Shown here: piece by piece, positions 5,396-29,557 of the stretch
Layout: each line of letters starts with the position of its first letter
How positions within the stretch are numbered: position 1 is the stretch's first letter
Origin: an uncultured Solirubrobacteraceae bacterium
GTDB lineage: Bacteria > Actinomycetota > Thermoleophilia > Solirubrobacterales > Solirubrobacteraceae
Direction: 5' to 3'
Length of the DNA: 64,000 bases
Assembly (NCBI GenBank): GCA_963720415.1
Contig: CAVRFQ010000011.1
Span: 16,169 to 80,168, forward strand
Program-made: the position numbers and the translations under genes
The notes under the pieces: model-generated
Database searches by the model: none
Told to the model about the DNA's origin: nothing
Seen by the model: the letters and a program-made list of their open reading frames with translations, nothing else

Positions 5396-6397
5396 TCACG
5401 AGCCGCGTGGCGTTCGCGGCGGCCCACGTGGTCGCGGACCTCGAGGGCGGCATCGACTGGGAGGCGACGCTCGCCTTCCGCCGCCACCTGTGGGAGCACG
5501 ACCTTGGCGTGGCCGAGGCGATGGACACCGCCCAGCGCGGCATGGGCCTCGACTGGCCGGCCGCGCGCGAGCTGATCCGCCGCACGGCCGCCGAGGGCGG
5601 CGGCAGGCTGGCGGCCGGCGCGGCCACCGACCACGCCGAGCCCGCCACGCTCGACGAGGTCCGCGCCGCCTACGAGCACCAGTGCGAGTTCGTCGAGGGC
5701 GAGGGCGCCCAGGTGGTCCTGATGGCCAGCCGCGCGATGGCGGCGATCGCCGCGGGCGCCGACGACTACCGCGAGGTCTACGGCGCCGTCCTCGGCCGGC
5801 TCGAGCGCCCGGCGATCCTGCACTGGCTCGGCGACATGTTCGACCCCGCGCTCGCCGGATACTGGGGGACGTCCGACCTCGACGAGGCGACGGAGACGCT
5901 TCTCGGCATCGTCACGCGACAACGCCGGCAAGGTCGACGGCGTGAAGGTCTCGCTGCTCGACGCCGAGCGCGAGGTCGACATCCGCGCCCGCCTGCCGGA
6001 GGGCGTCCGCCTCTACACCGGCGACGACTTCAACTACCCGGAGCTGATCGCGAGCGGGAGCGACGCGCTGCTCGGCGTGTTCGACGCGATCGCGCCCGCG
6101 GCCTCGGCCGCGCTGCACGCGCTCGACGCCGGCGACCGCGACGGGTACGACCGCATCCTCGCCCCGACGGTCCCGCTCGCCCGCCACCTGTTCGAGGCGC
6201 CGACCTTCAACTACAAGACCGGCATCGTGTTCCTCGCCTGGCTCAACGGCCACCAGGAGCACTTCCGGCTGCTCGGCGGCCTCGAGACCGCCCGGTCGAA
6301 GGACCACCTCGCCGACGTGTTCGTGCTCGCCGACCGCGCCGGGCTCCTGCGCGACCCCGAGCTGGCCCTCGCGCGCATGCGGCAGGCGCTCGCGTGA
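5392..6397 (+). pseudogene. DUF993-like (DapA-like TIM barrel) protein with apparent +1 frameshift near 5917
   Basis: The N-terminal part is in the frame of ORF 4231..7167 (VITSRVAFAAAHVVADLEGGIDWEATLAFRRHLWEHDLGVAEAMDTAQRGMGLDW..LLGIVT). The remainder is in ORF 5942..6397 extended upstream (DNAGKVDGVKVSLLDAEREVDIRARLPEGVRLYTGDDFNYPELI..). Joining requires skipping 1 nt at about 5917. Confidence 0.7.
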
Positions 6398-14559: not shown

Positions 14560-15354
14560 CCGGCAGCACCGTCCAGTCCGGGTGGCCGGGCATCGGCGGC
14601 GTCGTCGTCCCGTAGACCCACGCCCGCAGGAACGAGCGCAGGTCGCGACCGGAGACCTTCGAGGCGAGCGCGATGAAGTCGCCGGTCGAGGCCGACTCGC
14701 CCTCGTAGCGCCGCAGCCACTCGTGCTCGACGCGGTCGAACGCGCGCTGACCGATCTTCTGGCGCAGCGCGTAGAGCACGAGCGCCCCGCCTGGATAGAC
14801 GTTCCGGCGGGCACGTCGAGCGCGAAGGAGAACGTCGCCTTGTCGCTCGGGTGGTCGTTGGACGGGAAGATGTCGTGCGCGAGGTCCGGCTGCGCCGACA
14901 TGGCGGTGCCGTCCGGCGTCACGAAGAACGCCACGCTGACGTCGGCGTCGGTCGGCACCGCGGTGAAGCGCGCGCGGACCACGAAGACCTCGTGGTCGCG
15001 CAGCGCCCGCCCGGGCGTGACGACCAGCTCCTCGCCGGCGCGGGTCCAGCTCGCGGCGCGTCCGTCGACCGTGACGCCGGCGACGCTCTCGCCGGCGAAG
15101 TCGAGGTTGAAGCGTGAGAGGGCCTGCGTCGCGCGCGCGACGATGGTGACCCTCCCGTCGATGGGCTGCGCCGGCGCGCTGGTCGCGTAGCGCAGGTCGA
15201 GGTGGTAGTGGAGGGCGTCGTAGCCCCCGTTCCCCAGGCCGGGGAAGAGCCGGTCGTCCACGCTCGCGGCGCCGGGCGTCGGCCGCTGCGAGGCGGCGGC
15301 CGGCGTGACGGATACGGCGAGGAGGACGGCGGCGAGCACGATGGCGTACCGCAT
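14495..15354 (-). pseudogene. M1-family metallopeptidase with catalytic core deleted
   Basis: Signal peptide MRYAIVLAAVLLAVSVTPAAAS, then the M1 N-terminal domain (DRLFPGLGNGGYDALHYHLDLRY..ATFSFALDVPAG). The frame then changes and continues as the M1 C-terminal region (NVYPGGALVLYALRQKIGQRAFDRVEHEWLRRYEGESASTGDFIAL..MPGHPDW, ORF 14495..15367). No GxMEN/HExxH segment lies between them. Junction at about 14800-14806. Confidence 0.65.
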
Positions 15355-15370
15355 CGGCCGACGCCAACCG

Positions 15371-15400
15371 GCCGCCGCCCCTCCGGTGAAGGGCGGCGGC
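15371..15400 (-). terminator. GC hairpin after M14 gene (GCCGCCGCCC-10 nt-GGGCGGCGGC)
   Basis: 10-bp perfect stem located 22 nt after the M14 stop (15422-15424) on the minus strand. No U-tract. Confidence 0.4.
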
Positions 15401-15421
15401 ACGATTCCGGACCCCGATTAC

Positions 15422-17782
15422 TCAGTCGGCCCGAACGCAGGAGTCGCGCAGGTCCAGCTCGCGGCGCTCGCCGCGGGCGACGGCCACCTGGCGGGCCGAG
15501 CGGATGGTGCCGTCGGCGTCCTCGCAGAACAGCGTCCAGGTCTCCGCCCGGGCCGGCTGGAACGCCTCCGGGCCCTCGAAGGTCACGCTGCCGGTCCACG
15601 GCTCCGCGCCCGCGAAGTTGACCACCCGGACGACGTACTCGCCGGGCCGCGGATCGCCGAGCACGACCTGCTCGAAGCTCGTCGTGCCCTGGGCCGAGCT
15701 GCCGACCTCGACGCCGTCGCGCAGCACGCGGACGTCGTAGTCGCTGACGGGCGAGGGCCACTCCACGCGGATCGTGGCCCGCGCGTTGTCGATCCCCTCA
15801 CCGGCCGGGACCGTGATCACGTGGTCTTCGTAACACGTCTCCGGCGGGTCGTCGAAGTTCGCGCACGGGGTCGACTCGCCGCGCGGGGCGAACGACGCCG
15901 GCGGGCTCGGGTCGCCCGTCGCCTCGCGGCCGCGCTCCTGCGCCACCAGCGGGCGGGTCGACTGGTTCACGTGCCACTCGAACGCCCCGTCCTCGCCGGC
16001 CTGCATCGTGCTGTCGAGCGTGTCGGTGAACGTCGTGTCCTGCGACGTCGGGGTCTCGAACGTCTTGCGCAGGCGCAGCACCGCGCCCGCGGGCGCCGTG
16101 CCCGTGAGGACCGCGTGCTTGGACGCGTCGGCCGTGCTCTCCTGCGCGAGGAAGTACGCGGCCCGGTTGCCGCCCTCGTACTCGGCGACCGTCTCCGCGA
16201 ACGGCGGGTGGAAGTGCTCCGGCCCGATCTCGAACGTGAAGCCGAGGCCGCCGGTGGCGTAGTAGCTCCAGTCCTCGGTCGTGCCGGTGGTGTCGTAGAG
16301 CTGGTAGCTGAGCTGGCTCGCGTAGCCGTTCTCGGCGGCCATCGCGTCGCCCAGCGCCTTGTAGATCGGCTCGTCCGGCGTGAGGCCCTGGGCCTGGATC
16401 CCGGGCGGGCGCAGCACGAGGTTGGAGAACGTGTGGTTGGTGATCAGCGTGGTCACCTGGCGCGACGCGACCAGGTCGCGCACGTTCCGGGTCTCCGGCT
16501 CGGAGAACGGACCGGTGCCCCAGTAGGTCTCGTTGGTCGGGTCGCCGGACGCGCCGGCGCCGCCCCAGAAGCCGCCGTAGTTGCGGTTGGGGTCCACGCC
16601 CGCGCTGGCGAGGCCGAACGCCGGCTGCAGGCAGCTGCCGGCCGCTTCGCCGGTGACCAGGCGGCAGTTCTTGCGCCGGTACTCGTTCGGGTGGGTGAGG
16701 ATGTTGATGGTCTCCTCGTCCGCGGTGCCGCCACGCCCGTCGCCGGCGCCGTAGAGCTCGCCGGCCTCGCGCGAGGCGTTGAAGCCGTCGGGGTTCACGA
16801 CCGGGACGACGATCGTGCGCGTCGTCTCGACCAGCCGCCGCGTCCTGGCGTCGCCGCGGCGATGGCCGAGGATCAGCTCGTACGCCCACTCGATCGCGTG
16901 CTCGGCCGACGGCCACTCGCGCGCGTGGTGCGCGCCCATCTGCAGGAACACCGGCTTGCCGTCACGCGCGCCCGGGTTCGTCGTGATCTCGATGCCCTCG
17001 ACCGGGCGCCCCTCGTACGTCGCGTGGTTGAGCGTGATCGGCTTGACGAGGTCCGGGTGCTCGCGCGCGAGGCGCTTCATGTCCTCGCCGTAGTCGAACA
17101 GCCGGCGGTACGTCGTGCGCCCGCTGGGAAGCTCGGAAGCGGTCGTCGTGGCGTCGAACGCCGCGTCGGCCCGGCGGTCGCGGCGGCCCTGCGCCGTGAG
17201 GTCCGCGATCCGCGTCGTGAAGGAGAAGCCCGCGGCGCGCAGCCTCTGCGCGTCCGCCGCGCCGTGCAGCACCACGTCGAGGAAGCCGTCGCCGCCGTGC
17301 TCCGTGACGTCGAGCCCCGAGCTCGCGAGCTGCTGGGCGCGCTCGCGCGTCGGCGTGGCCACGCGCACGAGCGAGGCCGGCTCGGCGCTGCCGGCCCGCA
17401 CGCGCTCGGTGGCGACGTCGAGCGACGCGCTGCCGGCGCCGCCGGAGAGCCGGCACGCCTGCACGGTCAGCGTCGCGGCGCCGGTCACGAAGCCCTGCGC
17501 GAGCTCGCGGCCGCCGCGGTAGGCCGAGCCCGCGACCAGCCGGCCGGTCAGCGTGTCGAACACGGCCAGGTCCCAGTCTCCGGCGCCGCCGTCGAGCCGG
17601 GCGGTGACCGTGCCCGCGCCGGCGGCGAGGATCGTCCGTTGCGCGTACCCGCCGCCGGCGCGCAAGAGCTTCGCCGTGCAGCTGCGCTCGACCGCCGTGG
17701 GCACCGTCACCGTCGCGGCGCTCGCGGGCGCCGCGCAGACCAGCGCCGCCGCCACGGCCGCCGGGAAGAGGAGTCGTCTCAT
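15422..17782 (-). CDS. secreted M14-family zinc carboxypeptidase with N-terminal PPC-like domain
   Basis: Signal peptide MRRLLFPAAVAAALVCAAPASA. M14 motifs QMGAHHAREWPS and IVVPVVNPDGF. 786 aa. Confidence 0.9.
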   Translation of the reverse strand: MRRLLFPAAVAAALVCAAPASAATVTVPTAVERSCTAKLLRAGGGYAQRTILAAGAGTVTARLDGGAGDWDLAVFDTLTGRLVAGSAYRGGRELAQGFVTGAATLTVQACRLSGGAGSASLDVATERVRAGSAEPASLVRVATPTRERAQQLASSGLDVTEHGGDGFLDVVLHGAADAQRLRAAGFSFTTRIADLTAQGRRDRRADAAFDATTTASELPSGRTTYRRLFDYGEDMKRLAREHPDLVKPITLNHATYEGRPVEGIEITTNPGARDGKPVFLQMGAHHAREWPSAEHAIEWAYELILGHRRGDARTRRLVETTRTIVVPVVNPDGFNASREAGELYGAGDGRGGTADEETINILTHPNEYRRKNCRLVTGEAAGSCLQPAFGLASAGVDPNRNYGGFWGGAGASGDPTNETYWGTGPFSEPETRNVRDLVASRQVTTLITNHTFSNLVLRPPGIQAQGLTPDEPIYKALGDAMAAENGYASQLSYQLYDTTGTTEDWSYYATGGLGFTFEIGPEHFHPPFAETVAEYEGGNRAAYFLAQESTADASKHAVLTGTAPAGAVLRLRKTFETPTSQDTTFTDTLDSTMQAGEDGAFEWHVNQSTRPLVAQERGREATGDPSPPASFAPRGESTPCANFDDPPETCYEDHVITVPAGEGIDNARATIRVEWPSPVSDYDVRVLRDGVEVGSSAQGTTSFEQVVLGDPRPGEYVVRVVNFAGAEPWTGSVTFEGPEAFQPARAETWTLFCEDADGTIRSARQVAVARGERRELDLRDSCVRAD

Positions 17783-17818
17783 GCCCGCGGGAACGCGCGC
17801 GGGCGCGGAAACTGGCGC

Positions 17819-20248
17819 TCAGCGGCCGATGCGCAGCGCCGAGTCCTCGATCGTCGCGAGCCCGTCCATGCCGCCGAGGGCGGTCTCGGGCCCGAGGCCG
17901 CCCTCCGATCCGAGGAAGACCACCGCCGCGTCGTCGAGGCTCACCGGCTCCGCGACGCCGACCACGAGGTCGAGGATGCGGTCGCCGTTCACGTCGAGCA
18001 GCGACAGCGACTCGCCGAAGGCCGCGCCCTTCGCGGCGTCGTGCTCGAGCGTCAGCGTGTCGGCCTTGCCCTCGATCGAGCGCGCGCCGTGGATGACGGC
18101 GACCGCGCCCGCGGCGCCGGAGTAGCGCGCGCCGACGATCACGTCCCCCAGCCCGTCGCCGTTCGTGTCGCCGGCCTCGACCGCGTGCCCGAACTCGGTG
18201 CCGCCCTCGACCGGCAGGCCGGCGAGGTCCTCCGTGACGACGATCGGCTCGGCCACCGGCCCGTCCTCGCCGGCGCCCCACAGCCGCACCTCGCCCTCGC
18301 GCGCGGTCTCGCCGTCCCACGGCGCCTGGTCGCCCTGGACGACCTCCAGGTACCGGTCCCCGTTGAGGTTGCCGATGGCGAGCGCCGAGGTCCCCCAGCC
18401 GCCGGAGTCCGGGAACTCGGTGCAGGCGGTCGGTCCGTCGGGTGTCCCGGGGCAGTACGCGATGTGGCCGATGAGCTCGTTGTCGGGCTCGCCCATCGTG
18501 CCCTCGACGAGGTCGAGGTTGCCGTCGCGGTCGACGTCCCCGACCTCGAGGAAGCGCCCGAAGCCGACCGTCTCGTTCTCCGGGGGCTCGAGTCGCCGCG
18601 CGCGGTCGGCCGCCAGGCCGTCGGCGCCGCCGAAGAAGACGTGCACGGCGCCGTCGAGGTCGTTGCGCCGGTCCGCCGGCGATCCGGGGGTGCCGACCAC
18701 GAGGTCCGCGAAGCCGTCGCGGTCCAGGTCGCCGGCCGTCAGCGCGAACCCGAACGCCTCCGCCTGCGGCGGGGCCGACAGGAGGGTCGGCCGCAGCGGC
18801 GCGCCCCGGCGGGCCGGCGCCGACTCGTCCCCGTAGAGGAGCGCAACGATGTTGCGGCCGGGCGCGCCGATGGCCAGGTCCTGCTCGCCGTCGTCGTCGA
18901 AGTCGGCGCTCGCCAGCGCGGCGCCGTAGCGGTCGCCGCGTCGTCCGGCGCCCAGGCCTGCCGCCTCGGAGCTGATCAGCGAGGCCTCCCCGTTGTCGGG
19001 GCCGGGGTGGACGAGGACCATCCCGGCGCGCTCCGTGCCGCCTTCCGGCGAGCCGCCGGAGGCGCCCAGCACCACCTGCTGGCTGCCGTCGCGGTTGAAG
19101 TCGTACGGCGCGAACCGCTCGTCGTCCCCGCCGCCGCCGGCCAGCACGACCACGCCGGCCGCGACGGCGGCCACGGCAGCGGCCGCGCCGGCGGCCGCCA
19201 CCGCCGGGCGGCGCCACCATGGCGCAGGAGGCGGAGGTCGAGGCGGTGGTGGCGGAGGCGGGTCGCGCTTGCCGAGCGCCTCGCGCGCCGCCGCCTTCAC
19301 CGAGTCGCTGTCGTCGCGCGCCAGGCCCTCGAGCGTGTCGCGCGCGAGCGCCGCGAGCCCCGGCGCGCCCGAGCCCATGAGCGCGGCCAGCTCGCTCACC
19401 GCTCCCAGGCGGATCCCGGCCAGGTTGCTGCGCACCGCCGTGCCGAGCTCCGGCGGCAGCTTGACCCGGCGCGTGCTGTGGGCGATCACGATGTCGCCGC
19501 TCACCTCGCCGCTCATCCGCGGCGTCTGGTGCGCCGAGATCTCGCGCACCCGCGAGCGCGCGTAGTCGTAGAGGTCGTCGACCGAGATCGCGCCGTCGTC
19601 GTCGGTGTCCGCCTCGCCGGTGCGCAGGCCCTCGATCAGCACGCGGGTGAACAGCGACCCCGGCTCGGCGGCGTCCAGCTCGTTGATCCCGGTGGCGGGG
19701 TCGGACTCCTCGAACGCGTACTCGAGCTCGCTCGACGCCGTCAGCGTCACCCGCCCGTGGCCGTCGAAGCGATGCTCGACGTCGACGCTCAGCGCGCTCT
19801 TGGGCACGAGCCCCTTGCCGAACGCCCCGCTGTGGCAGCAGTCGAGCACCACGACGATCGACCTGGCGCGGCTGGAGTCCATCGCCTCGTTGACGAAGCG
19901 GTCCTCGATGGCGGTCGTCCGCACCCACTCGAGCTCGGTGCTCGCCGTCGCGAAGTAGAAGCGCCGGTCCTGCGACAGCACGCCGTGGCCGGAGAAGTAG
20001 AAGAGCAGCAGGTCGTTGCGCGCGCTGTCGCGGAAGAACTCCTCGATCCGCTTCTTGATCGTGTCGGTGGGCTCGTCGACGAGCTGCTGGACGTCGAAGC
20101 CGCCGATCGCCGGGTCGCCGAGCACGCCGGCGAGCGCCGCGACGTCACCGGTCGGCGCCCGCAGCGAGGCCAGGCCGGGATCGCCGTAGGTGCCGCTGGC
20201 GATCAGCAGCGCGCGGCGCGAGCGTCCCGGCGCGTCATCCGCCGCCAT
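17819..20248 (-). CDS. caspase-like (peptidase C14) - HEAT repeat - TM - 7x FG-GAP beta-propeller protein
   Basis: N-terminal RRALLIASGTY..LLLFYFSGHG (His)..VVVLDCCHSG (Cys). HEAT-like LAGIRLGAVSELAALM..SVKAAAREALGK. Poly-Pro linker, then TM WWRRPAVAAAGAAAAVAAVAAGVVVLAG. Seven FG..gD.d.DG..DL.vG repeats (e.g. FGFALTAGDLDRDGFADLVVGTPG). Confidence 0.9.
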   Translation of the reverse strand: MAADDAPGRSRRALLIASGTYGDPGLASLRAPTGDVAALAGVLGDPAIGGFDVQQLVDEPTDTIKKRIEEFFRDSARNDLLLFYFSGHGVLSQDRRFYFATASTELEWVRTTAIEDRFVNEAMDSSRARSIVVVLDCCHSGAFGKGLVPKSALSVDVEHRFDGHGRVTLTASSELEYAFEESDPATGINELDAAEPGSLFTRVLIEGLRTGEADTDDDGAISVDDLYDYARSRVREISAHQTPRMSGEVSGDIVIAHSTRRVKLPPELGTAVRSNLAGIRLGAVSELAALMGSGAPGLAALARDTLEGLARDDSDSVKAAAREALGKRDPPPPPPPRPPPPAPWWRRPAVAAAGAAAAVAAVAAGVVVLAGGGGDDERFAPYDFNRDGSQQVVLGASGGSPEGGTERAGMVLVHPGPDNGEASLISSEAAGLGAGRRGDRYGAALASADFDDDGEQDLAIGAPGRNIVALLYGDESAPARRGAPLRPTLLSAPPQAEAFGFALTAGDLDRDGFADLVVGTPGSPADRRNDLDGAVHVFFGGADGLAADRARRLEPPENETVGFGRFLEVGDVDRDGNLDLVEGTMGEPDNELIGHIAYCPGTPDGPTACTEFPDSGGWGTSALAIGNLNGDRYLEVVQGDQAPWDGETAREGEVRLWGAGEDGPVAEPIVVTEDLAGLPVEGGTEFGHAVEAGDTNGDGLGDVIVGARYSGAAGAVAVIHGARSIEGKADTLTLEHDAAKGAAFGESLSLLDVNGDRILDLVVGVAEPVSLDDAAVVFLGSEGGLGPETALGGMDGLATIEDSALRIGR

Positions 20249-20594
20249 GGCGCGCCAGGAACGTCTCGACGAGCCGCCGCTGGTCGGCGTCGGACGCGTT
20301 CTCGACCGTGAGCTTGTCGCCGTCGATCTCGAGCGTGACCGCGGCCTTCGGGTGGCGCTCGAGCCACGCCTGGAGGGCCATGATCATCGGCGGCACGGTG
20401 CCGACGAGCGTCACCACCAGCTGCGCCCATTCGACGGCGCCGCCCTTGGCGCCGGCGGGCGCCGGCATCGACGGGTGCGACACGTCGTCCACGCCGCGGT
20501 CGAGCATCTCCTCCCGCAGGCGCCAGGCGAGATCCGCTCGCTCCTCGTCGTCGCTGTCCGGAAAGCCCACGACCTGCAGGCGGATCTCGGTCAT
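20235..20594 (-). CDS. small EACC1-like protein (effector-associated constant component; assignment from memory)
   Basis: Start set at ATG 20594 (GGAG 7 nt upstream): MTEIRLQVVGFPDSDDEERADLAWRLREEML..PAGAKGGAVEWAQLVVTLVGTVPPMIMALQAWLERHP..VTLEIDGDKLTVENASDADQRRLVETFL. 119 aa. Its stop lies 14 nt inside the caspase gene. Confidence 0.65.
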   Translation of the reverse strand: MTEIRLQVVGFPDSDDEERADLAWRLREEMLDRGVDDVSHPSMPAPAGAKGGAVEWAQLVVTLVGTVPPMIMALQAWLERHPKAAVTLEIDGDKLTVENASDADQRRLVETFLARHGGG

Positions 20595-20697
20595 GACAGC
20601 TCCGACCGTAACCCCTTTCGTCAGCCGCGCGCAAGCGCGCGCCGCTCCGCGGCGCGCAGCCACGAGCCGCGCACCATCCCGCTGCCGGGGCGGACGA

Positions 20698-20877
20698 CGA
20701 GCCAAGTAGCGGGCGGGCGATCCGCAGCGAGCGCAGCCCGAGCAGGACCGTGGCGAGGCGCATCTCGGCGACCGTCACCGCGCGGGCGGCCGCCAGGGCG
20801 GCCTCGGGCGAGGCGGCGACGGCGCGCTCGTGCCGGTCCCGCCAGTCGGGATCGGGCAGGACGTCGTCGAGCGTCAT
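20698..20877 (-). pseudogene. possible 5' fragment of an SRPBCC-like/hypothetical gene
   Basis: The first ~60 codons of ORF 20203..20877 (MTLDDVLPDPDWRDRHERAVAASPEAALAAARAVTVAEMRLATVLLGLRSLRIARPLL) look protein-like. The rest is junk and runs into the EACC1-like gene. Confidence 0.3.
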
Positions 20878-20894
20878 GAACGGATGATCGCGGT

Positions 20895-20922
20895 GGAGGG
20901 GCCGCCGGGCGGCGGCCCCTCC
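20895..20922 (-). terminator. GC hairpin after large M14 gene (GGAGGGGCCGCC-gggc-GGCGGCCCCTCC)
   Basis: 12-bp perfect stem and 4-nt loop, 13 nt after the stop at 20935-20937 on the minus strand. No U-tract. Confidence 0.45.
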
Positions 20923-20934
20923 CCGCGAGCGTGC

Positions 20935-23900
20935 TCAGTCGAGCAGGTGGCGCACGGTGCGGCGCATCACCGCGTTGCGCTCGGCCTGCGTCGCGATCCC
21001 CTCGAACCCGAAGCCGAAGAGCAGCGAGTCCGGGGTGCTGATCGTGGCGCCGACCGGGAACCCGGAGTCGTCCGTCCGGATCCAGTTGTTGGCGTTCGCC
21101 CCGCTGGACGCGGGCTGGGCGGGAGTCCAGCCGTCGAACCCGGCCTCGAACGACGTGGTGCTGCCGTCCGGCAGCACGAAGTCGTCGAGGAAGACGCCGA
21201 GGTTCTGGACGGACCAGTCGCTGACGTAGGCGATCGAGATCTCGACCGTCTCGCCGGCGTAGCCGTCCAGGTCGATGCTCCACTGCTGCCAGCCGGCGGA
21301 GTTGCCGGAGGCGCCGTTCCACACGCCGGTCGAGCCCGTCGACGTGCACGTGTCCGGCGGGCCGGGCACGAACGTCGCGTAGTGGTCGATCTGCGGGTGG
21401 ATGTCCCGGAGCGCGGCGTCGCAGCTGTCACCGGGGTCGGTGTTGGTGTGCCCGTTGGCGTCCGGCAGCGTCGTCCAGTCGTCGCCGCCCGGCGTGCGGG
21501 CCTCCACGAACAGGTGGTCCCAGTCCGGCTCGGTGTCGTACGAGGTCCAGAACGTGAAGTCGCCGCCGCCCGCGGGCACGGCGATCTCGCGCGTCAGGCG
21601 CTTGTACGTCACGTCGGCGATCTGGGAGTACACGTACTGCGTGCCCGTGCGCGGCGAGAACGGCCCGCCGGGCTTGTCCCACCGGGACGACGGCCAGCTG
21701 TTGAACTGCGGGAACTGGCTCCGCGGCAGGATGCCGCTCGTCGAGACGAACGACGCGCTCATGCCCTGGTTGTCGGCGCTCTCCGGGCCGCCGAAGCCCC
21801 ACGTCAGGCCCGCGAACGGATCGTCGAGCCCGGCGATGTCGAACTGGTTGCCCTCCTCGTCGAAACCGTCGCCCGGCGCTATCGCGTACGCGCCGAACCA
21901 GTACTCGAGCACGTCCCCGACGAGGTCGCTCTGCGGCGCCCCGAAGAGCCCGAGGCAGCGCCGGGGCTCGAACGCCGGGTTCGGCTCCCCGTCGATGAAG
22001 CACGGGCCCTCGCCCTTCGGGTCGTAGAACTGCTGGCCCACCGCGCCGCCGGACACGAACTGGTGGCCGGCGAAGGCGCCGGTGTAGAGCACCCTGCCGC
22101 CCTCGTTCATGTACGAGCGGAACTCGAGGATCTCGTCGAGCGCGAGCCGGTCCGCGTTGCCCGCGCCCCAGCCCGTGCGACGGGTGACGGCGTCGTCGCC
22201 CGTGTACCAGATGACCGCGTCGTAGTGGCTGAGCACGCCGAGGTGGTCCGGCGCCGTGCGCCCGCGGGCGTCGACGTCGTACACGTCGGCCTTCACGCCG
22301 TTGGCCCGGAGCGCGTCGAGGTAGTAGTCGAGGTAGTGCGGACCGGGCGTCTGCACGGGCGAGGCGCCCGTGTAGTCCTCGGCCGCCACCACGAGCACCT
22401 TGCGGTTCGAGTCGGACACGACCTCGTAGGTGAACGAGTCGGAGCGGTACTCCCTGCGCCCCTCGTCGCCCTCGAACCAGACCTTGACCCGGTCGCCGGG
22501 GTCGCCGCCCTTCACCACGCCGCGCAGCTCGTGGTAGTAGACGGCGGCCGGCTTGTACTTCTCGCCGCCGCGCCACTCCTTGGTGCTCGCGCTCTGCGTC
22601 CGGCCGTTGTTGATCCGGTACTTGAGCGTGACGTTCCCGAGGCTCCGCTTGGCCAGCACGTGCACCGGCTGCGGGTCGCCATAGGAGTAGTCGAACGAGA
22701 AGTTCGCGCCCGGGATGCCGCCCTTGTACGGGTCGTCGCTCTCGAGGTAGAACGGCTTGGTCTCGATGCCCAGCGACGAGTCCGGGTCGTCCGGGTCGTC
22801 CGCGGACTCGACCACCGACTTCGCGAACGGCAGGTTGCGCTCGAACTCGGCCTGCACCAGCGCCTCGTCGTCGGGGAACACGAAGCCGCAGCCCTCGCAG
22901 CCCTCGGACAGCTCGGGCGTCCACGCGAGCGCGCCGCGCTCGGCGTGGGCGTAGTCCGTCGTCTCGCCGTTGGTGACGTAGAGGACGTCGGAGCTCAGGC
23001 CCGGATGGAAGTCCGGGATCGCCGGCTCGTCGAGGTTGCCCGACAGGGCGTAGTAGATCGGGTCGTCGGCGGTCGCCGTGCCGATCTGCCAGCCCTCGGC
23101 GTAGAGCAGCCACTGCCCGGCCGAGTGCCAGTTGACGTGGAAGCGGAAGTCGAGGTCGTCGAGCAGGCCCTTCAGGGCCTTGGTCTCGCGCTCGGAGCCG
23201 GCGCTCGGCCCGCGGTAGGTCTCGCTCGAGAAGATCGAGGACGAGCCCTCCTCGTCGTACTTCCAGTGCGCGGGCCAGTTGCGGTTCGGGTCGACGCCGT
23301 CGCCGATGTTGACGATGCCGTCGCCGTTGTTGTCGCGCAGGTTCTTGCGCCACAGCCGCTCGCCCTCGAACGTGTACTGATAGCCGTCCGGGTTGGCGCT
23401 CAGCACGAACCACAGCTCGGTCTCGCCGAGCAGGTCGCGGACGTGCCGGTTGCCCGAGTTGTAGCGGTCGATGTAGTAGTGCATGAGCCGCCGGTTGACC
23501 TCCGGCGTGATCCACTCGCGGGCGTGCTGGTTGGAGCTGAAGAGCACGGCGTCCCGCTTTCCGTCCTTCACGGAGCGGGCGTCCTTGGTGACCTTCAGCG
23601 CGAGGATCTCGCGCCCGTTGAGCGTGGTCCCGAGCTTCACCAGCTTGGTGAGCTTCGGGTTCTCGCGCGCGGTCTCGCGCAGCTCGTCGCGGAGGCCGCC
23701 GGGCTCGTCCCACGAGCGCCACACGTTGAAGCCGTTGGCCGCCTGGCGAGCGGCGAACTGCTGCACGGTCAGCCCACCCTTCACGCGCGTGAGCTGCGCG
23801 TTCACGCCGTCCGCGGCGAGCTTGTCGCGCTGGTCGGCGGTCATGATCAGGTCGACCTCGGTCCCGCCGCGCACCTTCCTCGCGCCCTCGAGATCGAAGC

Positions 23901-24042
23901 CCGAGGCGGTCACGGCCGCCAGCCCGCGCGCGTCGACGATCGCCGTGTAGGCGTCGAGGCGATCGCGCGCGGCGGCGCCTGCAGGCGCGGCCACGACCAG
24001 GAGGGCAGCCGCAACCGCGGCAGCCAGCAAGCACCTACGCAT
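20935..24042 (-). CDS. large secreted M14-family carboxypeptidase with ~600-aa C-terminal extension
   Basis: Start set at ATG 24042 (GGGGAGGGG SD upstream). Signal peptide MRRCLLAAAVAAALLVVAAPAGAA. Motifs SSNQHAREWITPE, VLSANPDGYQY, DPNRNW, WHSAGQWLLY. 1035 aa. Confidence 0.9.
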   Translation of the reverse strand: MRRCLLAAAVAAALLVVAAPAGAAARDRLDAYTAIVDARGLAAVTASGFDLEGARKVRGGTEVDLIMTADQRDKLAADGVNAQLTRVKGGLTVQQFAARQAANGFNVWRSWDEPGGLRDELRETARENPKLTKLVKLGTTLNGREILALKVTKDARSVKDGKRDAVLFSSNQHAREWITPEVNRRLMHYYIDRYNSGNRHVRDLLGETELWFVLSANPDGYQYTFEGERLWRKNLRDNNGDGIVNIGDGVDPNRNWPAHWKYDEEGSSSIFSSETYRGPSAGSERETKALKGLLDDLDFRFHVNWHSAGQWLLYAEGWQIGTATADDPIYYALSGNLDEPAIPDFHPGLSSDVLYVTNGETTDYAHAERGALAWTPELSEGCEGCGFVFPDDEALVQAEFERNLPFAKSVVESADDPDDPDSSLGIETKPFYLESDDPYKGGIPGANFSFDYSYGDPQPVHVLAKRSLGNVTLKYRINNGRTQSASTKEWRGGEKYKPAAVYYHELRGVVKGGDPGDRVKVWFEGDEGRREYRSDSFTYEVVSDSNRKVLVVAAEDYTGASPVQTPGPHYLDYYLDALRANGVKADVYDVDARGRTAPDHLGVLSHYDAVIWYTGDDAVTRRTGWGAGNADRLALDEILEFRSYMNEGGRVLYTGAFAGHQFVSGGAVGQQFYDPKGEGPCFIDGEPNPAFEPRRCLGLFGAPQSDLVGDVLEYWFGAYAIAPGDGFDEEGNQFDIAGLDDPFAGLTWGFGGPESADNQGMSASFVSTSGILPRSQFPQFNSWPSSRWDKPGGPFSPRTGTQYVYSQIADVTYKRLTREIAVPAGGGDFTFWTSYDTEPDWDHLFVEARTPGGDDWTTLPDANGHTNTDPGDSCDAALRDIHPQIDHYATFVPGPPDTCTSTGSTGVWNGASGNSAGWQQWSIDLDGYAGETVEISIAYVSDWSVQNLGVFLDDFVLPDGSTTSFEAGFDGWTPAQPASSGANANNWIRTDDSGFPVGATISTPDSLLFGFGFEGIATQAERNAVMRRTVRHLLD

Positions 24043-24086
24043 ATGTGTCCCCTCCCCACTGGAAATGGAGTAGGCGGTGAAGCCTT

Positions 24087-25352
24087 TCACTCGGTCGCGC
24101 CGTGCGCAACTTCCTGATAGCGCGAGTCGTACGACCACAGGCGCGGCATCGCCGCCGTCAGCGCGGCGATGCCGCCCACGCAGACCACGCCGCCCGCCAC
24201 CACCGAGGCCCGCAGGCCGAGCAGCGCGGCCGCGGCGCCCGCCTCGGCGTTGCCGAGCAGCGGCCCCGAGGACCACGAGATCATCTCCAGGCCGGCGAGC
24301 CGCCCGCGCAGGCGGTCGGGGATCGTCTCGTTCCAGATCGTCGCCCGGAACACGCCGGAGATCGCGTCCGCCCCGCCGGCCAGCGCCAGGAAGAACAGCG
24401 CGAGCCACAGCTCATGGGCGAGCCCGAACGCCGCGATCGCGACGCCCCAGCCGCACGCGGCCAGAACCACGGCGCGCCCGTGGCGGTGCACCCGCGCGGT
24501 CCAGCCGCTCGCGGCCAGGACGATCACCGCGCCGGCCGACGGCGCCGCGTAGAGCAGGCCGACCACCGCCCCGCCGCCGTAGTCGGCGGCCAGCGCCGGG
24601 AAGAGCGCCATCGGCATGGCGAAGAACATGGCGACCATGTCGACGAGGTAGGTGCCGAGCAGCTCCTGCCGCGAGCGGGCGAACTGCAGGCCCTCGACGA
24701 TCGCCTTCAGCCCGAGCGGCTGGCGCTCGGTCGGCGGCGGCGTGCGCATGGCGGCCAGCGCGGCGAGCGAGATCACGAACGTCGCGAGGTCGACGGCGTA
24801 CGTGACGCCGTAGCCGGCCGACGCGATCAGCACGCCCGCGACCGCCGGCCCGGCCAGCGATGCGAGGTTCGAGACCCCCCAGCTGAGCGCGCTCGCGGCC
24901 TTCAGCTCGTCGCGCTCCACGAGCCGCGGCAGCATGGCGTCGAGCGGCGGCCGGCGGATGGCCGAGAAGCCCGCGATCAGCGCCGCGGCCACGTAGAGGA
25001 ACCAGACGTGGGGATCCTCGAGCGTCGCGTTGAGCACCAGCCCGCCGACCGCCACGATGGCACCGACCTCGGCGAGCATGACGAGCCGCCGGCGGTCGAA
25101 CGCGTCGGCCAGCGCGCCGCCGACCAGCGCGAGCACGAGGATCGGCACGAACTCGGCGATCCCGAGCAGCCCGACGGCGACGGTCGAGCCGGTGAGCTCG
25201 TAGACCTGCACCGGGACCGCGACCAGCGTGATCATCGAGCCGAGCAGCGAGGTCGCCTGCCCGAAGATGAGCAGGCGCAGCTCCCGCCGCCGGCGCAGGA
25301 GGTCCGCGTCGACGGCGAGCGCGCGCAGGATCCGCGCGAGGCGCTGCCTCAC
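24087..25352 (-). CDS. MFS transporter
   Basis: 421 aa, multi-TM profile (LIFGQATSLLGSMITLVAVPVQVYELTGS.. EntS-like). GTG 25352 overlaps upstream TGA (GTGA). Confidence 0.9.
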   Translation of the reverse strand: MRQRLARILRALAVDADLLRRRRELRLLIFGQATSLLGSMITLVAVPVQVYELTGSTVAVGLLGIAEFVPILVLALVGGALADAFDRRRLVMLAEVGAIVAVGGLVLNATLEDPHVWFLYVAAALIAGFSAIRRPPLDAMLPRLVERDELKAASALSWGVSNLASLAGPAVAGVLIASAGYGVTYAVDLATFVISLAALAAMRTPPPTERQPLGLKAIVEGLQFARSRQELLGTYLVDMVAMFFAMPMALFPALAADYGGGAVVGLLYAAPSAGAVIVLAASGWTARVHRHGRAVVLAACGWGVAIAAFGLAHELWLALFFLALAGGADAISGVFRATIWNETIPDRLRGRLAGLEMISWSSGPLLGNAEAGAAAALLGLRASVVAGGVVCVGGIAALTAAMPRLWSYDSRYQEVAHGATE

Positions 25353-28443: not shown

Positions 28444-29557
28444 CTAGATCCCGAGCTCCTCGCACTTCGCGGCGAGGTCACCGGCGCAGATCTCCTCCTT
28501 CTTCGGGAAGTCCGGCTCCCCGAGGTACTCGCCGATGTTGTCCTTCGTCACCGAGACCGGCTTGAGCAGCACGGACGGGACGTCGATGCTGCCGTTGTTG
28601 ATCGGCACCGTCTCGGCCGTGGGCTCCTCGCCCTTGGCGAGCGCGATCGCGAGCTCGGCGGCAGCGTCGGCCTCGCCCTTGATCGCCTTGTAGACGGTCA
28701 TGCACTGATCGCCGTTGACGATGTTCTGGATGCCCTGCAGCGTGGCGTCCTGACCCGTCACCGGGATCTGGTCGAGCTTGCGCTGCTTGATGGCCGAGAT
28801 CGCCGCGTTGCCGAGGCCGTCGTTGGCCGCGAGCACGCCGTCGATGTTGTTGTCGGCCTTCTGCAGCATCTGCTCGAAGATCGTCAGCGCCCGCTGGTTG
28901 TCCCAGTCCGGCACGGACTCGTCGGCGACCTCGGTCCAGTCACCCGAGTCGAACAGCGGGTTGATGATCGAGTCGTAGCCGTTCTTGAACAGCGTCGCGT
29001 TGTTGTCCGTCGGCGAGCCGTTGAGCACCGCGATCTGCGGATCCTGGGTGCCGGCGGCCTCGATGCAGTCCACGAGGCCCTGGCCCTGGAGCTTGCCGAC
29101 CTCCTCGTTGTCGAACGAGACGTAGTAGCTCGTCGCGTCCGTGTCGAGCGTCAGGCGGTCGTAGTCGATGACCTTGACGTCCTGCGACTTGCGCGTTGGC
29201 CGCGATGGCCGCGCCCGAGCCGGAGTCGAGGTTCACCAGCAGGAGCACGGTCGCCCCGTTGGTGATCGCCTGCTCGGCCTGCTGCTGCTGGGTGGCCTTG
29301 TCGCCCTCCGCGTTCTGGATCTCCGCCTCGACGCCGGCAGCCTCGAACGCCTGCTGGAGGAACGGCCGGTCGACCGTCTCCCAGCGCACCGACGACTTGG
29401 AGTCCGGGAGCAGGACGGCGACCTTGCCGGCCTCCTCGCTACCGCTGGAGGCGCCGCCGCCGCCGCCGGCGTCCTCGTCGTCGTCGCCGCAGCCGGCGAA
29501 CACGAGCGCTCCTGCTGCGGCCATCACCACCGCGATCCGCCATGCCTTGTTCCGCAT
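28444..29557 (-). pseudogene. sugar ABC substrate-binding lipoprotein with apparent frameshift at ~29191-29194
   Basis: N-terminal half in ORF 28940..29557 (lipobox MRNKAWRIAVVMAAAGALVFAGC..KVAVLLPDSKSSVRWE..LLLVNLDSGSGAAIAANA). The remainder is in another frame (..SQDVKVIDYDRLTLDTDATSYYVSFDNEEVGKLQ.. continuing into ORF 28444..29073). Removing 1 nt in GCGC restores the frame. Confidence 0.75.

Follow-up and report, generated by a model that had tools for sequence, protein, structure and literature searches.

What is a caspase doing in one polypeptide with an integrin-like β-propeller? The question is raised by a 64,000-nucleotide stretch of DNA (hereafter the window) from an uncultured Solirubrobacteraceae bacterium (GenBank assembly GCA_963720415.1, contig CAVRFQ010000011.1, positions 16,169 to 80,168), which encodes an 809-residue protein consisting, in order, of a caspase domain, a four-helix module, a Pro-rich linker, one hydrophobic helix, and a seven-bladed FG-GAP propeller. 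A preliminary description of this gene, made from the sequence alone, placed caspase and propeller on opposite sides of a single transmembrane helix and proposed a receptor-like protease. The layout is supported by the present analysis, but the description missed a coupled upstream gene, EACC1, whose product is the likely substrate. We consider it fairly probable that the two genes form an EACC1-caspase cell-death (conflict) module in which the protease is built as a type II membrane receptor (table 1).

The EACC1-Caspase Gene Pair

The open reading frame (ORF) of the caspase-FG-GAP protein has a codon-position GC content of 0.75/0.55/0.96, and we regard it as a real gene because these values are typical for a genome of 73% GC; the window itself is 70–76% GC throughout. 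Its ATG start is consistent with 30–80 homologues. The EACC1 gene is recognized by Pfam PF19953 (E 3.4e-10, 40.3 bits against a cut-off of 23.6) and has a GGAG 5 nt before its ATG at 20594. Nearly all database homologues of EACC1 are 118–119 residues long, in keeping with the length found here (n = 192). In three orthologous contigs a 118–120-residue EACC1 gene overlaps the caspase-FG-GAP gene by 14–17 nt, and EACC1 adjoins the caspase gene in each of the related loci L001–L005. Single-sequence tblastn found an EACC1 match in 52 of 84 related loci, lying directly upstream of the caspase in 51, among them every Solirubrobacteraceae locus but one (L009). The in-frame fusion of EACC1, caspase, and FG-GAP in one database protein, P0105, also counts in favor of the identity of the system.

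Table 1. Features of the EACC1-caspase locus (window coordinates; aa, amino acids; TM, transmembrane; AF2, AlphaFold2)
Feature	Position	Strand	Basis or remark
Caspase-TM-FG-GAP gene	17819..20248	-	ATG-started ORF, 809 aa plus stop
Caspase domain, EACC1-associated type, very likely cytoplasmic (aa 11-260)	19469..20218	-	NF047832, PF00656
Catalytic dyad, His88 codon	19985-19987	-	intact
Catalytic dyad, Cys138 codon	19835-19837	-	intact
Predicted S1-pocket Asp35 codon	20144-20146	-	MCA2 alignment
Predicted S1-pocket Asp136 codon	19841-19843	-	MCA2 alignment
EF-hand-type loop GEADTDDDGAISVDDLYDY in caspase domain (aa 211-229)	19562..19618	-	family conservation, AF2 model
Four-helix (HEAT-like) module (aa 261-330)	19259..19468	-	AF2 helices, co-conserved with caspase
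Pro-rich tether ending WWRRP, very likely cytoplasmic (aa 331-348)	19205..19258	-	
Single TM segment, very likely (aa 349-371)	19136..19204	-	hydropathy, homologues
Seven-bladed FG-GAP β-propeller, very likely extracytoplasmic (aa 376-809)	17822..19123	-	Pfam, AF2, Foldseek
Conserved Cys599-Cys609 loop of propeller	18422-18454	-	
EACC1 gene (119 aa), predicted to encode a latent pore former that the caspase cleaves	20235..20594	-	PF19953
EACC1 stop/caspase start overlap, 14 nt	20235..20248	-	read from sequence; translational coupling
EACC1 motif P46-A-G-A-K50-G51 with predicted scissile K50/G51 bond	20442..20459	-	in low-confidence loop

Kaur 2020 (PMC7159879, section 33) defined a two-gene system in which a 5′ EACC1 gene is followed by a 3′ caspase gene whose C-terminal domain comes in up to 50 alternatives; transmembrane helices occur in at least 33% of the caspase proteins and are in some cases followed by an extracellular periplasmic-binding-protein domain. 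The present locus agrees with this system (System 4 of Kaur 2020) in its 5′ EACC1 gene, in a 3′ gene whose product begins with a caspase of the same EACC1-type subfamily, in the conserved pairing and tight overlap of adjacent co-directional genes, and in having a variable C-terminal region behind a constant protease. The characterized example is the EACC1 and caspase-Avs12 pair of Ktedonobacter racemifer, in which toxicity requires EACC1 and the catalytic Cys and the protease splits EACC1 into a 5.7-kDa N-terminal and a 7.1-kDa C-terminal fragment. The C-terminal fragment alone is toxic, and liposome leakage was obtained with cleaved EACC1 only (Evans 2025, bioRxiv 10.1101/2025.11.14.688446). 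By analogy with that pair, the EACC1 protein encoded next door is the most probable substrate and effector of the membrane caspase.

The caspase domain named in the preliminary description was recovered by Pfam Peptidase_C14 (PF00656) over residues 11–246 (E 8.1e-16, 58.8 bits against a cut-off of 21.4) and by NCBIfam NF047832, “caspase, EACC1-associated type,” over residues 11–236 (166.5 bits against a curated cut-off of 140). Its best sequence match in the PDB is the Trypanosoma brucei metacaspase MCA2, at a marginal E value of 0.004; in this alignment D35 corresponds to D95, S86 to S156, H88 to H158, D136 to D211, and C138 to C213, and the motif “DCCHSG” is identical. H88, C138, D35, and D136 are invariant across 81 homologues. 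Among 78 distinct EACC1-type caspases from Actinomycetota, Chloroflexota, Acidobacteriota, and other groups, D35 is kept in 77 and D136, H88, and C138 in all 78, and the set D35/S86/D136 in 75–78. In its His-Cys dyad in SGHG and DxCHSG motifs and in the predicted acidic S1 residues, the domain resembles the metacaspases and orthocaspases (MEROPS C14B; MCA2, PDB 4afr), with which it shares the “SGHG” His and the “DCCHSG” Cys motif; the protein differs from metacaspases in lacking both a type I prodomain and a type II linker, and the sequence similarity is marginal. In metacaspases and paracaspases (C14B), the S1 pocket is built from acidic residues at these positions, which account for the specificity for Arg/Lys. 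Residues D35 and D136 predict a basic (Arg/Lys) P1 specificity for the present domain as well.

Dependence on Ca2+ is typical of metacaspases, whose Ca2+ site is an Asp cluster, whereas the putative site here is a canonical EF-hand loop with the consensus D214-x-D-x-D-G-x-I-x-x-x-D/E. Among the 78 caspases, D214, G219, and I/V221 are present in every member, D/N216 in 75, D218 in 76, and E/D225 in 77, and the region is modeled as a helix-loop-helix (residues 199–210 and 223–237) with a predicted local distance difference test score (pLDDT) of 84–95. The conserved loop suggests Ca2+ control of the protease. Matches to known EF-hands are weak (Pfam EF-hand_8, E 0.13; polcalcin 2opo, E 0.54), and we found no mention of the loop in EACC1-type caspases in Kaur 2020 or Evans 2025.

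In the AlphaFold2 model of the 809-residue protein, built on the 81 homologues (mean pLDDT 86.4), two loops after the catalytic Cys, residues 140–157 and 174–192, have a pLDDT below 50. The first of them (approximately 19778–19831, minus strand) is disordered in the model and carries the motif “FGK145-G146-L-x-P-K150.” Within it F143, G146, and P149 never vary among the homologues and G144 and K150 hardly do, whereas K145 is present in less than 90%. By its motif and its location at the position of the caspase intersubunit linker, K145-G146 is a candidate autoprocessing site. The N-terminal stretch “SRRALLIASG,” although Tat-like, forms strand β-1 of the caspase fold (residues 11–17, pLDDT 94) and aligns with “RALFIGINY” of T. 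brucei MCA2. A Tat or Sec signal at the N-terminus was rejected on these grounds, in agreement with the earlier view that the protein has no signal peptide. The HEAT-like repeats described previously hold in part: HEAT_2 is below the Pfam threshold (E 0.082, 13.6 bits against a cut-off of 27.7), as it is in P0105 (23.7 bits), but the model does contain four helices (266–272, 277–291, 296–309, and 315–324) arranged as helical hairpins. The mean pairwise identity of this module is 60%.

EACC1 itself is modeled by AlphaFold2 as a compact α+β fold (pLDDT 86.4, predicted template modeling score 0.81) with a poorly ordered loop at residues 33–51, and a Foldseek search of the model against the PDB gave no significant match (best E 0.03, ferredoxin-like). 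The most conserved feature of the flexible loop is the motif P46-x-G48-[AST]-K50-G51; in 47 EACC1 proteins from several phyla, P46 was kept in 46, G48 in 43, K/R50 in 46, and G51 in 40. We predict that the scissile bond is K50/G51 of PxGAK/G, given an acidic S1 pocket resembling that of metacaspases, the conservation of the motif, and computed fragment sizes of 5.6 and 7.4 kDa that are near the published ones. R/G sites are cut by another defense caspase (Evans 2025, bioRxiv 10.1101/2025.11.14.688446). The alternative cut at Asp36/Asp37 (D/E36 in 43 of 47) ranks below K50/G51, as cleavage at Asp36 yields 4.3 and 8.8 kDa, at variance with the published sizes, and is also disfavored by the acidic S1 pocket. 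From the Ktedonobacter homologue, together with the intact dyad, the flexible loop, and the conserved K-G, the caspase would be expected to cleave EACC1 into a pore-forming fragment here.

Probable Membrane Topology and the FG-GAP Propeller

The poly-Pro run, WWRRP, a 23-residue hydrophobic segment, and GGGDDE follow one another exactly as first described. The segment, rich in Ala, Val, and Gly, averages 2.33 on the Kyte–Doolittle scale over 19 residues, and no other window of the protein is strongly hydrophobic. Each of the 81 homologues has a single strong hydrophobic segment in this location, at a segment identity of only 36%. Their mean net charge is +2.95 over the 15 residues before the segment and −1.53 over the 15 residues after it, with the positive-inside rule obeyed in 76 of the 81. 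C599 and C609 of the propeller are the sole invariant cysteines outside the active-site CC. In stand-alone propeller relatives (P0136 and P0212), a signal peptide leads directly into the same “PYDFDGDG” first blade, and the Cys-Cys loop is retained. Charge bias, exported paralogues, the Cys pair, and the receptor-kinase paralogues described below make it very likely that the orientation is N-in/C-out, as the preliminary description had it, with the caspase in the cytoplasm and the propeller outside. We infer that the receptor is a single-pass type II membrane protein.

The cytoplasmic tether ranges from 17 to 80 residues across homologues (median 38) and is 40% Pro. Because the tether is floppy, activation by proximity or clustering is to be preferred over a transmitted conformational change; the earlier guess that clustering of the propeller could control the caspase is favored over rigid conformational coupling by the disorder, Pro content, and variable length of this region. 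On the outer side, the propeller starts 9–23 residues beyond the transmembrane core, a stalk so short that the propeller would sample the membrane-proximal zone under the wall.

The FG-GAP repeats were confirmed with PF01839 (E 8.8e-34, 115.3 bits against a cut-off of 22.1) and PF13517 (FG-GAP_3; 59.7 bits against 26.9). The FG-GAP hidden Markov model calls five stretches; by sequence there are the claimed seven units, starting at residues 383, 449, 507, 571, 627, 694, and 752 with a spacing of 56–67 residues, and the AlphaFold2 model also has seven blades. These comprise 7 × 4 strands plus two closing strands (28 + 2) in the C-terminal 430 residues, at a pLDDT of approximately 93–98. Four of the DxDxDGxxD hairpins are canonical (449, 507, 571, and 694) and three are variant; metal binding is predicted from the sequence, and the acidic Ca2+-type loop ligands of blades 2–4 are kept in at least 78 of 81 homologues. 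Mean pairwise identity is 0.75 for the caspase versus 0.41 for the propeller.

Nearly all of the 50 best Foldseek matches in the PDB are seven-bladed propellers of integrin α-chains, with alignments spanning approximately 450–475 columns; the best, 9ind_A, has an E value of 5.9e-14 over 467 columns on a 440-residue target and a TM-score of 0.65 on the target. One further match is the Streptomyces griseus UmbA4-teichuronic acid complex (9oee_A). The protein shares with integrin α the fold, blade number, FG-GAP repeats, DxDxDGxxD loops, and a very likely extracellular position on a single-pass protein. It differs in having only 15–20% identity, a probable type II rather than type I orientation, no thigh or calf legs, and an enzyme as its cytoplasmic part. 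No β-subunit-like gene was seen in L001–L005, and with the opposite orientation the protein does not qualify as part of an integrin heterodimer. The modeled propeller is integrin-like in fold only.

The nearest relatives of the propeller outside the caspases include a group of Ser/Thr kinases composed of a kinase domain, an Arg-rich stretch, a transmembrane segment, and a propeller (P0127, P0131–P0133, P0165, P0169, and P0181; P0131–P0133 are from Solirubrobacteraceae). They resemble the caspase receptor in their N-terminal cytoplasmic enzyme, Arg-rich stop-transfer, and single transmembrane helix, and also share the “PYDFDGDG” first blade and the CxxxxGPxxC loop. P0132 is collinear with it over all seven blades at 38% identity (E 7e-61). 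The differences are the Hanks kinase output and that no EACC1 partner is expected. Judged by their sequences, the kinase-transmembrane-propeller proteins are a paralogous receptor family with a different output. Because a collinear ectodomain feeds two cytoplasmic outputs in one bacterial family, the propeller probably has a signal-input role, for which this sharing is the strongest argument. M23 peptidoglycan endopeptidases (P0175, P0184, and P0199) likewise carry FG-GAP relatives.

Distribution and Neighboring Genes

In the scans run, which used one genome per species, full-length relatives were found only in metagenome-assembled genomes (MAGs) of the Solirubrobacteraceae (Thermoleophilia, Actinomycetota). 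The caspase and helical module (residues 1 to approximately 330) occur with other C-termini in Anaerolineales/Chloroflexota, Acidobacteriota, Planctomycetota, and other groups, the tblastn matches in Chloroflexota, Acidobacteriota, and Planctomycetota extending to approximately residue 325–340. More than 100 protein database clusters of 750–870 residues contain both Pfam domains, and some are already labeled “Caspase domain/FG-GAP repeat.” A phage origin was rejected, as 2.9 million viral contigs yielded three relatives of the caspase module, none with a propeller. These viral sequences (L085–L087, IMG/VR) consist of caspase and helical module without FG-GAP and are 30–43% identical over residues ~10–325; they may be true phage genes or host carry-over.

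The window and its orthologues have a conserved gene order of ROK regulator, sugar transporter with periplasmic-binding protein and ABC permease, GFO/IDH oxidoreductase, MFS gene, EACC1, and caspase. Orthologues at this chromosomal position are about 47–59% identical, and from the fixed position among such divergent orthologues we conclude that the pair has been inherited vertically for a long time. A defense-island context was rejected, the neighbors being sugar transport, oxidoreductase, and MFS genes. The pair is flanked in the window by two secreted M14 zinc carboxypeptidases (15422–17782, minus strand, 786 residues; 20935–24408, minus strand, 1157 residues), the larger with an InhA-like MAM domain. 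They also flank it in the closest relative locus, L001, and not in L002–L005, and a conserved functional link was rejected accordingly. No other conserved partner gene was seen in L001–L005.

Two database entries depart from the usual gene arrangement. The locus L009 (3001–5840; Solirubrobacteraceae MAG DATDKF010000339.1) has EACC1 directly downstream of the caspase gene at 5481–5840, followed by an apparent degenerate caspase start (MAPDDGSAGRR...); a rearrangement, a tandem remnant, or a mis-assembly is possible. The fusion protein P0105 (886 residues, NCBI/JGI), in which EACC1 precedes caspase, transmembrane segment, and FG-GAP in frame, could be natural or a frameshift or annotation artifact.

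Several smaller features of the window were also recorded. The start of a short ORF, “MTLDDVLPDPDWRDRHERAVAASPEAAL...” (20689–20877, minus strand), falls within the 340 bp that separate the M14 gene from EACC1, and the ORF then continues over EACC1 out of frame. It has no Pfam match; a similar peptide, VTLDDPIPDPHWRSRHERV..., is encoded directly upstream of the caspase in L009, and the ORF is possibly a gene remnant. In the upstream ABC operon, the gene for a Peripla_BP_4 sugar-binding protein (28444–29557, minus strand) is split into two overlapping ORFs in different frames (28940–29557 and 28444–29073), which is a frameshift, a pseudogene, or a sequencing error. ARAGORN called a 94-nt tRNA-Thr(GGT) at 16598–16691 (minus strand) inside the M14 carboxypeptidase coding sequence; this is probably a false positive, Rfam being empty there, as there were no Rfam matches anywhere in the window. 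A scan of 15300–21100 found no sigma-70-like promoter and two weak terminator-like matches, both within coding sequence; for an actinobacterium of 73% GC this result is uninformative.

Possible Roles and Relation to Known Systems

If, as we think fairly probable, the locus is an EACC1-caspase cell-death module with a membrane receptor as its protease, the propeller would sense a ligand or an envelope event and the receptors would cluster. The tethered caspase domains would be brought together and become active, possibly assisted by Ca2+ at the EF-hand loop, and would cut cytoplasmic EACC1 in its flexible loop after Lys50 of PxGAK/G. As in the Ktedonobacter homologue (Evans 2025), the freed C-terminal fragment would oligomerize and form membrane pores, resulting in death or arrest. 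The role of the module would be abortive defense or regulated cell death with a trigger from outside the cytoplasm. Sensor role, clustering, cleavage site, and Ca2+ control are all features that we infer. A more elaborate version, which is conceivable but rather doubtful, is a two-gene “extrinsic” death pathway in which the Ca2+-loaded propeller, placed between membrane and wall, recognizes a cue from the envelope or beyond it. Candidate cues are a phage tail tip or ejection protein, damage by lytic enzymes, and a molecule from kin or competitors. Clustering would turn on the membrane-tethered protease, which would cut EACC1 at PxGAK/G, and Ca2+ influx through the first pores would feed forward via the EF-hand to an all-or-none commitment. 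Sensing would in this case occur before, or independently of, cytoplasmic infection signals.

A number of observations weigh against the death-module interpretation. The conserved chromosomal position lies in no recognizable defense island, and a housekeeping or regulated-death role of long standing would explain it no less well than phage defense. PADLOC returned only a generic caspase match and nothing for EACC1. In L009 no upstream EACC1 was found, its sole EACC1 match being downstream of the caspase gene. The lower conservation of the propeller may reflect merely weaker constraint. The putative cut in Ktedonobacter EACC1 is at Asp49 (AlphaFold3 model) and not at a Lys (bioRxiv 10.1101/2025.11.14.688446). 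Finally, AlphaFold2 gives no transmembrane helix, residues 340–376 (tether and transmembrane segment) having a pLDDT below 50.

The last point, together with the Ala/Gly-rich composition of the segment, is what could be said for the view that the segment is not a membrane helix and that both domains lie on the same side. We regard this as highly improbable given the hydropathy of the segment and its retention in every homologue despite low identity, the charge bias, the signal peptides of the exported paralogues, and the invariant Cys pair of the propeller. A more serious competitor, though still unlikely, is that the propeller serves as an anchor, binding a wall or membrane-proximal glycopolymer and holding the caspase at the envelope or septum. 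The trigger would then arise in the cytoplasm or the membrane; the EF-hand loop might detect an inflow of Ca2+, for example, or EACC1 might respond to membrane stress. In favor of this are the conservation of the EF-hand loop in 76–78 of 78 EACC1-type caspases whatever their C-terminus, the FG-GAP relatives on M23 endopeptidases, the Foldseek match to the teichuronic acid complex, and the closeness of the propeller to the membrane. However, a collinear ectodomain on Hanks-type kinases in a receptor-kinase layout is the usual signature of signal input, and in the characterized homologue the domain fused to the protease is a sensor (Evans 2025).

Vertical inheritance with conserved synteny throughout a bacterial family, the near absence from viral contigs, and the existence of kinase paralogues would also be expected of a nonlethal signaling receptor, parallel to the kinase receptors, whose caspase processes EACC1 or other substrates for envelope homeostasis or development. 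Pore formation and toxicity are, however, the only demonstrated activity of EACC1 (Evans 2025), and the pair lacks any further conserved partner gene in the five loci compared, which makes this a quite improbable alternative. Less probable again is the model proposed in PMC7159879 (section 33), in which EACC1 is a membrane-inserted sensor that activates the caspase, and caspase autoproteolysis frees its own C-terminal domain as the effector. The disordered loop after the catalytic Cys could be the autoprocessing site that such a model calls for, but an extracytoplasmic, nonenzymatic propeller would be beyond the reach of a cytoplasmic protease and has no obvious effector activity. The homologue experiments show EACC1 to be the substrate and toxic effector (Evans 2025), and the EACC1 model is a soluble α+β fold before cleavage, not a transmembrane protein.

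The death module as we envisage it differs from caspase-Avs12 in having an extracytoplasmic FG-GAP domain behind one transmembrane helix and no NTPase, where the Ktedonobacter protein has a cytosolic STAND/Avs ATPase. In contrast to known EACC1 systems, the present locus is chromosomal and syntenic, and its full architecture is restricted to Solirubrobacteraceae in the scans run. Caspase-gasdermin pyroptosis and bacterial gasdermin-protease pairs are functional analogies only, in that a protease relieves a pore former of its autoinhibitory segment; in fold, EACC1 bears no detectable resemblance to gasdermins. Likewise, the resemblance to death-receptor (extrinsic) apoptosis, in which an extracellular cue activates a caspase by induced proximity, is one of function only, as receptor and caspase here are one polypeptide and death-fold adaptors are lacking.

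The preliminary description treated this domain combination as not known to have been described, which holds only in a narrow sense. FG-GAP is not named in the main texts of Kaur 2020 or Evans 2025, the latter of which makes no mention of an extracellular sensor, FG-GAP, or calcium, and we found no description of the architecture in literature on FG-GAP with caspase in prokaryotes or on transmembrane orthocaspases. Both FG-GAP and EACC1 are absent from one supplement of Kaur 2020, whose source data may list this architecture. Related transmembrane caspases with extracellular sensors have, however, already been described in silico, namely those with periplasmic-binding-protein domains (PMC7159879) and the analogous EACC2-caspases with extracellular CHASE2 domains (Kaur 2021, PMC8195603). 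What is already known is the EACC1-caspase two-gene system, including variants with a transmembrane segment and an extracellular sensor; the new elements are the FG-GAP ectodomain variant, the kinase paralogues, the predicted K/G site, and the EF-hand loop.

To our knowledge, the protease-effector death modules characterized so far in bacteria, including the tested EACC1 system, are all triggered by cytosolic sensors. If EF-hand and basic P1 specificity hold family-wide, the published model with a putative cut at Asp would be refined. The family is compact, at two genes and approximately 930 codons, and the collinear ectodomain on kinases offers a route to the ligand. A caspase wired to an extracytoplasmic propeller would, if the interpretation is correct, be a one-polypeptide analogue of death-receptor signaling and would indicate how death modules read signals from outside the cytoplasm.

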